64,000 bases of DNA from the IMG/VR virus record IMGVR_UViG_3300010403_000023; one strand, 5' to 3'. Both the position numbers and the translations under genes were made by a program. Below the pieces are notes generated by a model that did no database searches, was not told where the DNA came from, and was given only the letters and a program-made list of their open reading frames with translations. Shown here piece after piece: positions 341 to 12,530 of this stretch. The stretch is from a virus (taxonomy: Duplodnaviria > Heunggongvirae > Uroviricota > Caudoviricetes). Positions within the stretch are counted from its first letter, which is position 1. Each line of letters starts with the position of its first letter.

Positions 341-684
341 AGGGCTATTCTCCTGTTGATTAACATTGGTTTTTAGGTTTGTTTGGATCATTAACAAAAG
401 TATAACTAATAGGCTGTATTGTGCGACTGTATTGCGTTTCAGAGGTTTTATTTTATTCATGTTATGATTTATTTACGTTCAACATTTGGATTTAAACTTT
501 GTACGTCGTACATTTGTGTTGTTATCGTAGTAGATGCGTAACCAGTTATGAGAGTATATTATCTACCTGTTTAATAGGCCAGCTTTAAAATAGGCAAACA
601 GATACGGCGGGATTCCGGGCTTTTGCTCTCCTTTAAAAATTAGCGTATTAACCAATATTTTACTCACTCATTAAATTACATTTT

Positions 685-1098
685 ATGAATAAACTATTTA
701 TAAATTATGAACTTTCTTTAGCACTTAAAGAAATAGGTTATAATGAACAAGATATTGCATATTATCGCCTTTCATTTAAGGAAGAAAACGCGCCATTTAA
801 ACTAACTGAATTAGCTTATTTTAGAGAAAGATATGATAATCACAATTTCAGATTAGAAATACATAAATCAGCAGGCCATGAAGCAATATGTACAGCACCA
901 ACATATCAACAGGCTTTTAATTTCTTTATAGAAAAGAAGGTAATAATTTATCCTGAATATATTGATTGCAATTCTAAACCAATATACGTTATAAAGTGGC
1001 ATAATGGTATATGTCATAATGAATTCAGATCAGTTAATATTATTACATCTATTCAGAAATGCATATCCTTAGTAAAAGAAACGAATTCCCACCGCTGA
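685..1098 (+). CDS. hypothetical protein (137 aa)
   Basis: Clean ORF preceded by a TTTACTCACTCA box about 14 nt upstream; the stop TGA lies inside an IGR-1 copy. Confidence 0.55.
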   Translation: MNKLFINYELSLALKEIGYNEQDIAYYRLSFKEENAPFKLTELAYFRERYDNHNFRLEIHKSAGHEAICTAPTYQQAFNFFIEKKVIIYPEYIDCNSKPIYVIKWHNGICHNEFRSVNIITSIQKCISLVKETNSHR

Positions 1099-1165
1099 AC
1101 GGTGCTAACGCAAATCAAGCTGGAGTTATTAACTTCCGCTGGCTGCAAAAAGAATAACAATAAAA

Positions 1166-1234
1166 GGTTAACTGATGATGGCTTATTAATAGCCGAAACG
1201 CTACAACACTACAATGTGTAGCGTATTAACCAGG
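1166..1234 (+). repeat. hairpin repeat family H, copy 1 (GGTTAACTGA..GCGAAACGC-hairpin-GCGTATTAACCA)
   Basis: Near-identical to 1769-1826; contains the stem ACGCTACA/TGTAGCGT. Confidence 0.5.
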
Positions 1235-1271
1235 TAAATTATTATTCACTCACTCATAAAAACAAAATCAA

Positions 1272-1514
1272 ATGAAAAAGATCATGTTTATTGCCTATTT
1301 ATTATTGATCGCTGCATTATGCTTCGGTATCAGCGAAACACACGCCCAGGCTTGGACACCAAATAAAAAGTACATTAAAGCAAAGGATACCAGCAAGCCT
1401 GCAACTACAAGTAAATACCAGTGTTACGGCACTACTCAAAAAGGGGAACGCTGTAAAAGGCATGTACCGCAAGATCATGGCTTTTGCTATCAACATATTG
1501 AGCAGGCAAAATAA
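1272..1514 (+). CDS. small secreted protein with a C-terminal Cys/His cluster (80 aa)
   Basis: N-terminal signal-peptide-like MKKIMFIAYLLLIAALCFG..AQA; C-terminus has CYGTT..RCKRH..GFCYQH; ATTCACTCACTCA box upstream. Confidence 0.55.
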   Translation: MKKIMFIAYLLLIAALCFGISETHAQAWTPNKKYIKAKDTSKPATTSKYQCYGTTQKGERCKRHVPQDHGFCYQHIEQAK

Positions 1515-1549
1515 TTCATATTATTATCTCACATTTCAAACACAAAAAC

Positions 1550-1768
1550 ATGTCATTTAAGAAACAAATAATACTCATCATTATAATATCCTCCATTATA
1601 GGGTATTGGGGCGGCAATTACTACAAAGATCATTTTAGACCTGCTCCGCGTTCAGTCTACGTACAATTACAAACAGAAGAGCCATTACATAAGGGTGATA
1701 CCTTAATGGTCTATGAAGTAACAAAAGGCAAGCACTGTGATACTATTTGGATAGGATATTTAAACTGA
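1550..1768 (+). CDS. small membrane protein (72 aa, one TM)
   Basis: Hydrophobic N-terminus IILIIIISSIIGYWG; TTATCTCACATTTCA box upstream. Confidence 0.5.
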   Translation: MSFKKQIILIIIISSIIGYWGGNYYKDHFRPAPRSVYVQLQTEEPLHKGDTLMVYEVTKGKHCDTIWIGYLN

Positions 1769-1826
1769 GGTTAACTGACGAGCTTTTAATAAGCGAAACG
1801 CCATACAGTAATGGCGTATTAACCAC
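1769..1826 (+). repeat. hairpin repeat family H, copy 2
   Basis: GGTTAACTGACGAGCTTTTAATAAGCGAAACGCCATACAGTAATGGCGTATTAACCAC; stem ACGCCAT/ATGGCGT. Confidence 0.5.
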
Positions 1827-1839
1827 TAAAACAAACACT

Positions 1840-2088
1840 ATGGAAGAGGTAATAATGTTCCATTTAGACGGTGATAATGAGTGTTATTACTGCTTTGAAC
1901 AATACGAAATGCAATCATTTGCAGAGAATGAAGGTAAGGAAATTGAAAGCTGGGGGATAGCCGTAAATGGTATGCCAGATGGCACTTTACATATTAGTAG
2001 TCATCCGAGAATTTATATTAATTACACTTCGGATGATGAAAAGCATTTCGGAAAGAATAATAAATCTACTCCGGGCTTTGGAGATTAA
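1840..2088 (+). CDS. hypothetical protein (start adjusted to MEEVIMF.. after the hairpin repeat)
   Basis: The ORF track start at 1747 overlaps the previous gene and the repeat; the internal ATG at 1840 follows the hairpin. Confidence 0.45.
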   Translation: MEEVIMFHLDGDNECYYCFEQYEMQSFAENEGKEIESWGIAVNGMPDGTLHISSHPRIYINYTSDDEKHFGKNNKSTPGFGD

Positions 2089-2104
2089 GTATAAAGATCG
2101 TAGA

Positions 2105-2160
2105 AGTTCCGAACGATTAACGGAGCGTCGCAACCGCAACTAAATAGATATTCAGACTTT
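2105..2160 (+). repeat. IGR-1 copy (variant A core AACGGAGCGTCGCAA at 2119-2133)
   Basis: Core plus CCGCAACTAAATAGAT box; forms an inverted pair with the 2600-2676 copy around ORF 2189-2608. Confidence 0.7.
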
Positions 2161-2188
2161 GACTAACAAATATTTAAACAAATACAAC

Positions 2189-10650: not shown

Positions 10651-10670
10651 ATGAAAAACTTAATCAACTT

Positions 10671-10916
10671 TTGCTTTGTATTTTTTCATTATTTATTTTC
10701 GTAATTGCTTTCATTGCTTTACTGTCTGCCTTTTCCTGCAAAACAGACCATTACTATCACAAAAGAAAACAAGCCTACCAGGACAGCATTTCATCATGTA
10801 AGTTCTCTTTTGATACTTCAAATAGATTATCAGACATGTGCTTTTATACTAATAAAGCAATAGGGTTTAGAAATCATTTAAGGGAGATAGATAAAAAATT
10901 TGGGGGTCGTCGGTAG
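10671..10916 (+). CDS. small membrane protein (81 aa)
   Basis: N-terminal hydrophobic helix CIFSLFIFVIAFIALLSAF. Confidence 0.4.
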   Translation: MLCIFSLFIFVIAFIALLSAFSCKTDHYYHKRKQAYQDSISSCKFSFDTSNRLSDMCFYTNKAIGFRNHLREIDKKFGGRR

Positions 10917-10934
10917 GGGATCTATTTAGCTCCT

Positions 10935-10968
10935 GGTGCGACGCTCCGTTTGACACCTTCACTACTAC
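10935..10968 (-). repeat. IGR-1 copy (variant A, reverse; GTGCGACGCTCCGTTTGACACCTTCACTACT)
   Basis: Shares the flank TCACCTTCACTACT with the copy at 17102-17135. Confidence 0.7.
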
Positions 10969-10979
10969 AATCATTTCTT

Positions 10980-11636
10980 ATGAAAATAGACCAGCACGAC
11001 TTTGATGAAATAATAGCAATTGTCAAAGAAGGTAAACCAGGTAGAATAGAGGTTACGCGCGGATGTAACGCTGCGAGAAATGGAGGGTGTGCATGTATGG
11101 GGTGGTGTAGAGATGTTGTTGGTTTTTATGAGAATGGACAGTTTACTACTATAAAAGATGTGGAACGTAAATTAGAAGTTGGCTTTTCTTCTTATCCATT
11201 AAATACCGGGATACCTCTATCAAATGAAGTTAGCGATGAAGAGGCAGCGAAAAAATGCAATCCTAATTTAGCATATAGTTTAGATAAATCAGTCCTTACA
11301 TATACATTTTCGCAAAAAGATAAAAACACCATCATGGAATACACTAAAATATCTCCTTTGGGACCAAGAGTTGGTCCCGGAACTTTTGATTTCGTTTTTG
11401 ATACTGAAAAATACAAGATGGACCAAGCTATAATAGCTAATGATGGGATTATTGTTGATTTTGTAAAAGGAAATGATGGCATTCTTTACTTTGACGCTTA
11501 CGATACAAAACAACCCGATATACACGAATATTTACGCCTACAAATACAGCATTTCCCATTTGGTATTGATATGATGGATGATGCTGCAGGATTTGAATTA
11601 GGCTGCTCTTTATTAAGGAAAAGACCAAAGCAGTGA
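10980..11636 (+). CDS. hypothetical protein (about 218 aa; start moved to MKIDQHDF.. outside the repeat)
   Basis: The track start at 10950 lies within the repeat flank. Confidence 0.55.
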   Translation: MKIDQHDFDEIIAIVKEGKPGRIEVTRGCNAARNGGCACMGWCRDVVGFYENGQFTTIKDVERKLEVGFSSYPLNTGIPLSNEVSDEEAAKKCNPNLAYSLDKSVLTYTFSQKDKNTIMEYTKISPLGPRVGPGTFDFVFDTEKYKMDQAIIANDGIIVDFVKGNDGILYFDAYDTKQPDIHEYLRLQIQHFPFGIDMMDDAAGFELGCSLLRKRPKQ

Positions 11637-11642
11637 CGCTGT

Positions 11643-11680
11643 CGAACGGTGCCAACGCAAAGAACCCCTGAATTATTTCC
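11643..11680 (+). repeat. IGR-1 copy (variant B; core AACGGTGCCAACGCAA at 11645-11660)
   Basis: Core plus AAGAACCCCTG. Confidence 0.65.
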
Positions 11681-11707
11681 TCACCTCAACAACCAAAACT
11701 TTTTTTT

Positions 11708-11971
11708 ATGATATACTCCAACTCAAAAGAAAACTGGGGAATAACCGTCCTTACAGAGAACGAACAAAAAGAACCCCTTGAAGTATCGCAGATCAGCATT
11801 ACTATGCTAGGTGGAAAGATGTGGACCGGAACGATTAATGACTTCATGGCCCAGATAAAAATATTGCAGAATGCTTCTTTTTATATACGATTAAATGATA
11901 AGCATAACTTAGAAGTATGTAAAAAGGAAATTGACGCGCATCTTCAACTTCACTTAAATCCACAATCATGA
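11708..11971 (+). CDS. hypothetical protein (87 aa); paralogue of the 4836-5114 product
   Basis: Shared KMWTGTINDF..IKIL motif. Confidence 0.5.
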   Translation: MIYSNSKENWGITVLTENEQKEPLEVSQISITMLGGKMWTGTINDFMAQIKILQNASFYIRLNDKHNLEVCKKEIDAHLQLHLNPQS

Positions 11972-12137
11972 ACCATCCAGCAGACTTTCATCCTACTCTT
12001 GCTTTACTCTACATGGAAAGACTAAGAGAATTAAGAAGATCAGAACTTAGTAGTAGTCCGGTTTATTTCTTTGTAAGAAGGGCTTTTAGGTATCATTGGG
12101 TTAATTCTTTTTCAGTCATCGCTAACTAATAACTCCG

Positions 12138-12162
12138 GCGCCAGTGGCGATGGCACCGGTCA
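12138..12162 (-). repeat. IGR-1 copy (variant B, reverse; CCGGCGCCAGTGGCGATGGCACCGGTC)
   Basis: Same module as the 4768 copy. Confidence 0.65.
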
Positions 12163-12188
12163 GCTAAACAACTTCTTTCACTCGTAAA

Positions 12189-12530
12189 ATGAGCATTATG
12201 AACTACGACGAATTTGTAAAATTAATCCCATTCCAAACAGAAGAAAGTGGGCTTACATTAATAGCCAACTTTATCTGCCAGGATGAAACCATCCTCCCTA
12301 TGATGATGAATATACTAAGTGCCGAAAGATCAAGAAAAAAGGAATTAATTACAGATATGAATGCGGCACTTACCAGAACAACTGTTGCTTTAATGCATCC
12401 AGAAATGACAATGGGAAATACAGCAGAACAGCAAACTCAATTTTATCTGGATGCAAATAAAAAATTCTACCAGAAATATGCGGGTCAAATTAAAACCGCT
12501 GGTTTAAAGTTGTGGGATGATGTAGAATGA
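12189..12530 (+). CDS. hypothetical protein (113 aa)
   Basis: CTTCTTTCACTCGTAAA box upstream. Confidence 0.55.
   Translation: MSIMNYDEFVKLIPFQTEESGLTLIANFICQDETILPMMMNILSAERSRKKELITDMNAALTRTTVALMHPEMTMGNTAEQQTQFYLDANKKFYQKYAGQIKTAGLKLWDDVE

Follow-up and report, generated by a model that had tools for sequence, protein, structure and literature searches.

The window analyzed here is the whole 64,000-nt stretch of the Caudoviricetes record IMGVR_UViG_3300010403_000023, which makes up most of an 84-kb contig (ENA ERZ27256657 k141_815351) and has its position 1 at the contig end. The element under study is a short box with the core CTCAC, which lies upstream of start codons near the left end of the window. 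The motif is real, with firm statistical support and a tightly held position, yet local: it precedes six genes of one predicted transcription unit. We see about an even chance that the box is part of a start-associated leader and translation-initiation cassette that acts on RNA. Calling the box-bearing genes early genes, as the initial annotation of this DNA did, is an assumption.

According to this leader reading, the leftmost eight genes (685-4677) would be transcribed by the host RNA polymerase (RNAP) from a promoter at 485-516 into one polycistronic RNA, possibly with a second start at a repeat module near 2641, and this RNA would be partly cut by two hammerhead ribozymes. The box would form the conserved 5' half of a cassette of about 25-30 nt, composed of a T-rich run, CTCAC, pyrimidines, TCAAA, about 10 nt, and the ATG. 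On six of the eight cistrons the cassette would keep a landing site that is unstructured and rich in pyrimidines and A at a constant spacing from the AUG and would permit independent, Shine-Dalgarno-free initiation at each cistron, with the ribosome, protein S1, or a phage or host factor as candidate readers of CTCAC. This reading is favored because the distance to the ATG is strict (22-24 nt) at all six strong sites and because no phage RNAP or sigma factor was detected.

The CTCAC box and its distance from the start codon

The 5-mers upstream of the 27 small plus-strand open reading frames (ORFs) across 685-12965 were tested for enrichment. The test was run without the motif of the initial annotation as input and was therefore unbiased. 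CTCAC was the most enriched 5-mer between -50 and -1 of the 27 starts, and it was present in 8 of them against 0.57 expected (Bonferroni 6e-5). When the 27 upstream regions were shuffled with preservation of dinucleotides, the mean number of CTCAC occurrences was 1.39 and the maximum was 7, and none of the 5000 shuffles reached 8. The motif is thus enriched upstream of starts, and the box sequences quoted in the initial annotation were found close to where it had placed them.

Six strong boxes were found, all on the plus strand. CTCAC of box 1 (TTTTACTCACTCATTAAA, 658-675; matrix score 27.3) is at 663, 22 nt before ATG 685, and CTCAC of box 2 (TATTCACTCACTCATAAAAA, 1243-1262) is at 1249, 23 nt before ATG 1272, with a hammerhead ribozyme (1166-1231) ending 18 nt upstream. 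In box 3 (TTATTATCTCACATTTCAAAC, 1521-1541) the core is at 1528, 22 nt before ATG 1550, and in box 4 (TATATTTCTCACTTCTCAAA, 2683-2702) it is at 2690, 22 nt before ATG 2712. Box 5 (TTTTATTACTCACTCTCTCAAAC, 3324-3346) has CTCAC at 3332, 24 nt before ATG 3356, and box 6 (TTTTTACTCACTTCTCAAAC, 3696-3715) has it at 3702, 22 nt before ATG 3724. Boxes 3, 5, and 6 occupy intergenic gaps of 35, 32, and 32 nt, respectively, directly behind the preceding stop codon, and box 4 lies downstream of a copy of a genome-wide intergenic repeat (core at 2641). The probability that at least six of the eight CTCAC distances fall inside one 3-nt window by chance was about 9e-5. The exact sequence TTACTCAC was present in four copies on the plus strand and in none on the minus strand.

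The conserved unit extended beyond 8 nt and consisted of a T-rich run, CTCAC, a pyrimidine stretch, and TCAAA(C). The CTCAC core, at -18 to -22, was invariant in eight sites, and the A-run of the extended box was at -10 to -13. The conserved block was about 12-18 nt long and was separated from the ATG by a gap of 17-18 nt; the boxes were intergenic and were preceded by an AT-rich stretch.

A position matrix built from the six boxes gave no other strong match on either strand of the 72.9 kb of the contig covered by our genome-wide scans. Weak sites only were detected, at 4811, 11680, and 61568, the last on the minus strand and 174 nt from its gene. The two on the plus strand had been missed in the initial annotation, namely TTTTACTTTTCTCAT (4801-4815; matrix score 9.6), 25 nt before ATG 4836, and TTATTTCCTCACCTCAAC (11673-11690; matrix score 8.8), 28 nt before ATG 11708. 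The box had been described there as present at many starts over 660-12190 at a roughly constant distance from the ATG. Six strong sites agree with this description, but all are confined to 660-3724, and the constant distance holds for these six but not for the other cited sites. Those at 6756 and 12168 are without CTCAC and are wrongly spaced, 38 nt and 12 nt before the ATG. The plus-strand site at 7107 is a partial box (TTTTTTACTCACAAT, 7104-7118) in which the core is present, but it is 33 nt before ATG 7144; its opposite strand adjoins the TTTTTG end of a copy of the intergenic repeat.

The proteins encoded downstream of the six boxes are the products of small non-structural ORFs (72-317 aa) and belong to different Pfam families or to none. 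Because they differ in length and Pfam assignment, the cassette is unlike a by-product of gene duplication, as judged without pairwise comparison of the six. It is highly improbable that the box has no function of its own and is left over from a ~30-nt intergenic segment that was recently copied from gap to gap. In favor of such copying, the gaps before ATG 2712, 3356, and 3724 resemble one another over their entire 30 nt, the gaps before 685 and 1272 likewise form a similar pair, and the motif is absent elsewhere in the genome. However, the flanking genes differ in length and share no common Pfam family, so the segment would need to have spread alone, and related but diverged boxes keep to a fixed position in several distant relatives (neighbour protein 52-76% identity), which argues for selection.

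Transcription of the box cluster and the search for a phage polymerase

Three features indicate a Bacteroidota host: the large terminase is distant kin of Cellulophaga and Flavobacterium podophage terminases, Shine-Dalgarno sequences are missing, and canonical TTTG/TAnnTTTG promoters are found at intergenic positions that make sense. The promoter consensus of Bacteroidota is TTTG at -33 and TAnnTTTG at -7 (PMC6847099). A canonical promoter of this type, TTTG-N20-TACATTTG (485-516, plus strand), heads the box-bearing cluster; its predicted transcription start is near 521-526, and about 140 nt separate the promoter from the box at 660, which follows it. The next perfect host-type -7 element, TATTTTTG (4728-4735, plus strand), is in the gap after the last strong box gene, where the next predicted unit starts. 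Since perfect host-type -7 elements occurred in the plus-strand intergenic gaps of 1-13100 only at 509 and 4728, the six boxes are inside one predicted unit. A terminator scan gave no site in any intergenic gap of 528-4677, and we infer that the cluster is a single transcript.

The boxes themselves are unlike the host consensus, as the initial annotation had noted, with no TTTG and no consistent TAnnTTTG register. The -7 element of the primary sigma factor (TAnnTTTG/TAHHTTTG) has a nearly invariant G at -5, whereas the boxes are G-free and show no such register before CTCAC. In a scan for TTG-N17-22-TAnnTTTG that allowed at most one mismatch, no box region was recovered for the -33 TTTG/TTG element either.

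A phage sigma factor or RNAP reading a phage-specific promoter had been one of the two roles proposed for the box, and this proposal found no support. Pfam, PHROGs, and PDB sequence searches, run with the first six small proteins and with the ORFs of large and medium size, gave no RNAP or sigma family, and precomputed Pfam assignments gave none either. Motif B of T7-like enzymes (RxxxKx6-8[YF]G) was absent from every ORF of at least 300 aa in the 72.9 kb, and a T7-like RNAP was rejected on these two grounds. In the 2748-aa ORF no plausibly placed DFDxD-type motif was seen; the nearest to it was DKDSD, whose surroundings are unlike those of an RNAP, and the ORF had no PDB match; it was therefore rejected as a crAss-like virion RNAP. 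Early promoters of virion RNAPs go with a giant DFDxD protein in crAss-like phages and are hairpins in N4-like phages, and the box fits neither type. In phi14:2, the sole crAss-like phage studied, the early transcripts of the virion polymerase are without a common upstream motif, and therefore nothing is known that could be matched for crAss-like promoters. Moreover, canonical host-type promoters exist where they are expected, one of them at the head of the box cluster.

Promoters of single-subunit phage RNAPs are exemplified by T7 TAATACGACTCACTATAG and T3 ...CCCTCACTAAAG. The box and the boxes of a related contig, L216, share ACTCACT or CTCACTAAA with them, and the upstream part is likewise AT-rich. 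However, the block is about 12 nt long instead of about 23 nt, it lacks a G-start region, and the genes surveyed include no cognate polymerase. Instead of a block of 20-23 bp placed genome-wide before middle and late genes, as in a T7-like system, only six sites in 3 kb were present.

It is unlikely, given these results, that the box is a single-block promoter in which the T-rich run and CTCAC are read by an undetected phage polymerase or by a host RNAP that an unrecognised phage factor redirects. Transcription of each box gene would then begin separately, about 7-10 nt downstream of the box, and the leader would be about 10-15 nt long. The motif is strand-specific and intergenic with an AT-rich stretch ahead, its core resembles what we take to be positions -7 to -1 of T7/T3-type promoters (CTCACTATA, CTCACTAAA), L216 has CTCACTAAAA, and the 2748-aa and 1655-aa ORFs and many small ORFs are without assignable function. 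All of this is compatible with such a promoter, but no conserved -35-like upstream element accompanies the box, no consistent -7 register is present, the polymerase and sigma searches were negative, and a promoter does not need a strict distance to the ATG. If the box were a promoter, this barely annotated phage group would be expected to have a transcription factor or polymerase that has escaped recognition.

The gap after the last box gene also holds, on the minus strand, the sequence GGTTTATACTCACTATATC (4690-4705), which is the sole minus-strand ACTCAC within 1-13100. It presumably matches the T7 promoter over ACTCACTATA, probably by chance.

Boxes in related phages and a proposed role in translation

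The ParB-like and 317-aa proteins had dozens of homologues (45-76% identity) on contigs of up to 95 kb. These relatives came only from a large protein database and contig look-ups; scans of IMG/VR, JGI metagenomes, and GTDB genomes guided by the 317-aa or ParB-like protein gave no useful relatives, and a near-identity DNA search with the region gave no match in 50,697 phage records. The same box was present in none of the relatives examined; several carried related ones. A scan of IMG/VR for TTACTCACT-N1-4-TCAAAC gave more than 120 matches, each single on its contig except for one pair at the ends of a 2.4-kb contig, which is consistent with chance.

L093, the left end of an 82.5-kb genome whose 317-aa protein is 70% identical, contained ACTTACAAA five times on the plus strand and not once on the minus strand. 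Four of the five, together with one ACTCACAAA, were 10-13 nt before called gene starts, and the fifth ACTTACAAA was 21 nt before an uncalled 54-aa ORF. In the same contig a perfect -7 element, TACTTTTG (3254), is 28 nt upstream of the ACTTACAAAC box, which is therefore between the predicted transcription start and the ATG, in the leader. In L216, CACACTAAAA, CTCACTAAAA, and TTACTCACTAAAA were found 18-25 nt before ATGs. The gene for the 317-aa protein is preceded by TTTTTACTCACTTCTCAAACCTCTAACA in the window, and its orthologues by CCTAACCTCCAAACTTACAAAGATC in L093 and TTTAACTCTCAAAACTTACAAACAAA in L094. The orthologue in L092 has a hammerhead (E=5.5e-11) with an ACTTAC box between the predicted cleavage site and the ATG, and the 3' cleavage product, UUAACCAAGAUUUAAAACUUACAAA-AUG, holds the box; hammerheads in this contig are at 551-615 and 3779-3852. 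One host-type -7 element heads the plus-strand cluster in each of L216, L092, and L094. The L093 and L092 cases demonstrably place the box family inside the predicted leader.

The same relatives bear on the promoter explanation. The identity of the motif differs between related phages, as with phage-specific promoters. Against this, the equivalent box in relatives is downstream of a host-type -7 element or a ribozyme cleavage site, and the box of L093 is only 3-7 nt from the ATG, which would require leaderless mRNAs. Leaderless mRNAs are uncommon in Flavobacterium johnsoniae, in which 87% of leaders are longer than 10 nt (PMC6847099).

A second type of box was seen in some of these contigs. 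In L085, L092, and L093, TTTAACTTTT follows a conserved CACCGTTCA by 13-15 nt, whereas its distance from the ATG varies (14-34 nt). Within 620-7530 of L085 (60% ParB identity), at least six genes are preceded by the box AATAAAATTTAACTTTTA(A/C)A, whose distance from the ATG ranges over 14-31 nt. This module, again 13-15 nt after CACCGTTCA, has a two-block promoter-like geometry and was also found in L092 (2608) and L093 (5422, 7482).

The other role proposed in the initial annotation, a translational enhancer, fits better than a phage promoter, although the function is a predicted one. The strict spacing, the 32-35 nt gaps in one predicted unit, and the boxes of relatives inside the leader agree with it, and so does the A-run, which falls on the -11 to -14 determinant of Bacteroidota (PMC6847099). 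Initiation determinants in this phylum are A at -3, -6, and -11 to -14 (Baez et al., 2019, PMC6847099), and in F. johnsoniae the adenines at -11 to -14 promote initiation (PMC6847099). The TCAAA half of the box sets adenines at -10 to -13, and the leaders are G-poor as in that system. The 30 nt upstream were G-free in five of the six box genes and contained one G in the sixth, and no Shine-Dalgarno sequence (complement of the anti-Shine-Dalgarno CCUCC, 5-10 nt before the start) was found there. We infer that the box acts in translation.

Several points weigh against the leader reading. CTCAC, at -18 to -22, is outside every known translation determinant of Bacteroidota, and A-richness and G-poverty are common to genes without the box in this genome. 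When the box genes were compared with the other 21 genes, neither the predicted accessibility nor the G-poverty of their leaders was better: the unpaired probability was 0.59/0.64 for box genes and 0.53/0.61 for the others, G-poverty was general, and the idea that box leaders are unusually unstructured or G-free was rejected. Therefore an unstructured leader leaves the specific sequence unexplained. The box is present on only 6 of the 27 genes of the region, and two genes of the same unit are without it. Judged from the sequence, internal promoters are possible. The TTTAACTTTT box of L085, L092, and L093 looks promoter-like, and therefore not all conserved upstream boxes of this phage group are leader elements. 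In addition, about 11 kb of the 84-kb genome was outside the searches, and most of the proteins are unannotated.

The unexplained specificity also bears on a regulatory site. It is distinctly unlikely that the box is a site for a cluster-specific regulator, whether an asymmetric DNA operator, a target of an RNA-binding translational repressor, or a site for an endoribonuclease in shut-off or processing. CTCAC is invariant in eight sites and conserved far past the needs of an unstructured leader, the sites are restricted to one co-oriented cluster, and ribozymes would process other gaps of the same unit. The RepL-like (6168-6698) and ParB-like proteins encoded in the genome suggest a plasmid-like or temperate state in which such genes would need silencing. 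However, no candidate repressor or nuclease was identified, and the site is not palindromic; its fixed distance to the ATG suits an RNA-binding repressor but is unexplained for a DNA operator. Only six sites are present, compared with the approximately 30 genome-wide stoperators of Cluster A mycobacteriophages (mentioned in PMC3203893).

Under a further explanation, to which we give little credence, the lineage-specific 'ACUYAC' leader boxes would be a sequence-specific substitute for the Shine-Dalgarno sequence, and a dedicated reader (a phage or host protein, or base pairing) would recruit the ribosome. The reverse complement of UUACUCAC, GUGAGUAA presumably matches a universally conserved segment of 16S rRNA near nt 107-114, and both C and U at the variable position of ACUYAC would pair with the G of what we take to be this segment. 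Together with hammerhead cleavage, such boxes would make up a private translation-initiation code for the first-expressed genes.

Among known elements, the box comes closest to the start-associated sequences (SAS) and extended SAS (ESAS) of Cluster K mycobacteriophages, which are asymmetric 13-bp repeats located 3-7 bp before starts; their function is unproven and a part in the initiation of translation has been proposed (PMC3203893, Pope et al., 2011). Both SAS and the box are asymmetric, have one orientation and a fixed short distance, and precede a subset of non-structural genes from unrelated families. Both are also absent from structural genes, and some copies of each are accompanied by a second upstream repeat. 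In contrast, SAS has the consensus GGGATAGGAGCCC, which includes a Shine-Dalgarno core, and is separated from the start by 3-7 bp, whereas the box is G-free, is 17-18 nt from the ATG, has six strong copies, and belongs to a non-Shine-Dalgarno host phylum. Thus the box is an analogue of SAS and not a member, with no sequence relationship; by this analogy it would be a new variant within a little-understood start-associated class. Bacteroidota do not use Shine-Dalgarno pairing, and how start sites are marked beyond A-richness is poorly understood, phages included. A positioned, sequence-specific box before the first gene cluster of a phage is a candidate for an extra initiation or control signal, a case strengthened by the diverged boxes of relatives, and it could serve as a ready-made part for the design of expression in Bacteroidota.

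Hammerhead ribozymes, the intergenic repeat, and gene content

Two type-I hammerhead ribozymes were found on the plus strand, both with the core CUGANGA...GAAA...UH. The first (1166-1231; 52.8 bits, E=1.6e-11) is between the gene at 685-1098 and box 2. The second (1769-1824; 68.8 bits, E=5.8e-16) would leave, in its predicted cleavage product, a 21-nt leader to ATG 1840, the start of a gene without the box. The family was found by a pattern scan in 76 IMG/VR viral contigs (L003-L078), and a model made from an alignment of 45 distinct viral copies was used to score the hammerheads of the window. In this alignment 97% of the cells were paired, the covariation of stems II and III was 0.443 against 0.105 in shuffled alignments, and 0 of 500 shuffles reached this value. 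The two hammerheads of the window have a conserved stem I (GGUUAA/UUAACC). The distance from the cleavage site to the ATG was mostly 18-24 nt at 62 distinct viral loci, and the leader was A-rich; these leaders match in length both the 21-nt leader of gene 1840 and the stretch that begins with the box at its 5' edge and runs to the ATG. Rfam, at the gathering and E-value thresholds, gave nothing for the box, the repeat, or the hammerheads, and the sole trace was an 18.7-bit match to the RAGATH-1 hammerhead.

For hammerheads that flank prophage genes, a function in the processing of long transcripts has been proposed (PMC3088659, Perreault et al., 2011). In early-operon processing of the T7 type, a polycistronic early RNA from one promoter region is cut between genes; the layout here is similar, with small genes behind a promoter at the genome end and self-cleaving ribozymes in some gaps. 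However, unlike T7-type processing sites and flanking hammerheads, the box itself has neither a ribozyme structure nor one like an RNase III site. It was also considered as the 3' half of a ribozyme, an idea that was dropped, as visual inspection revealed no conserved element upstream of the boxes. A third hammerhead at 560-655 had been suggested by a shared GCGTATTAACC, but the model finds none there and CUGANGA is absent. This plus-strand stretch follows the promoter at 485-516 and precedes box 1; its last 14 nt (TAGCGTATTAACCA) are also found as the 3' end of the hammerhead at 1166-1231, and the stretch is probably a decayed hammerhead relic.

The intergenic repeat is about 75-100 nt long and occurs in 34 copies genome-wide on both strands, for example at 1111(-), 2641(+), 4770(+), 7062(-), 8026(+), 8604(+), and 10070(+), and further on at 12563(-), 14206(+), 31090(-), 36252(-), 52418(+), and 61493(+). 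Its core is either GCGACGCTCCG (17 copies against 0.006 expected) or GCG[AT]T[AG]GCACCG (17 copies). Read in one direction, it consists of a -7-like (T)TTTTTG, CAGCAGGGG, ATCTAT, and the core, often with GGAATGCTATT/TATTTAACTTTT just before the ATG. In the opposite orientation, its first letters often coincide with the stop codon of the preceding gene, and its last ones, before the next ATG, are CTGCTGCAAAAA. The repeat may serve as a promoter/leader module, form a terminator hairpin, or be bound by a protein. Related copies are present in L085, L092, and L093, and an IMG/VR scan for the repeat pattern gave five matches only, all single, coding, and attributable to chance.

Other features of the plus-strand region were noted. 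The long gap before the RepL-like gene (6040-6167, plus strand) contains a near-canonical host promoter, TTG-N19-TACATTTA, with one mismatch, and several operator-like TTGTACA/TGTACAA palindromic half-sites. Within the ORF at 7144-7674, a perfect-looking GCC/GAC/TAC coding repeat (7470-7605, plus strand) encodes an Ala/Tyr/Asp-rich low-complexity tract; the protein has precomputed Imm5-like Pfam matches. A hairpin at 13030-13068 (CCGCCTTCA...TGAAGGCGG) with T-runs on both strands closes the plus-strand small-gene region and separates it from the convergent ParB-like gene. From its sequence it looks like a bidirectional intrinsic terminator, and it gave a weak Rfam match to ctRNA (24 bits).

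From 13106 on, mostly minus-strand structural and other genes follow, including the large terminase, a tail fibre, and the 2748-aa ORF, after which come plus-strand GroES/GroEL genes and then the 1655-aa minus-strand ORF. The 2748-aa ORF (20775-29021, minus strand) and the 1655-aa ORF (56427-61394, minus strand) had no Pfam or PDB sequence match, and the sole match of the former was to a 120-residue stretch of PHROG 938, annotated as endolysin. The phage chaperonin genes (52945-56259, plus strand) encode first a 572-aa protein whose C-terminal part is a GroES domain and then a full-length GroEL (E=4.8e-138). At the contig end (1-340), a strongly C/T-rich, G-poor stretch (ccaccccctccctttccc...) is followed by a G-rich partial complement, gcaagggaaaggtgaagggcggaagggg, and this end may be a genome terminus or packaging region.

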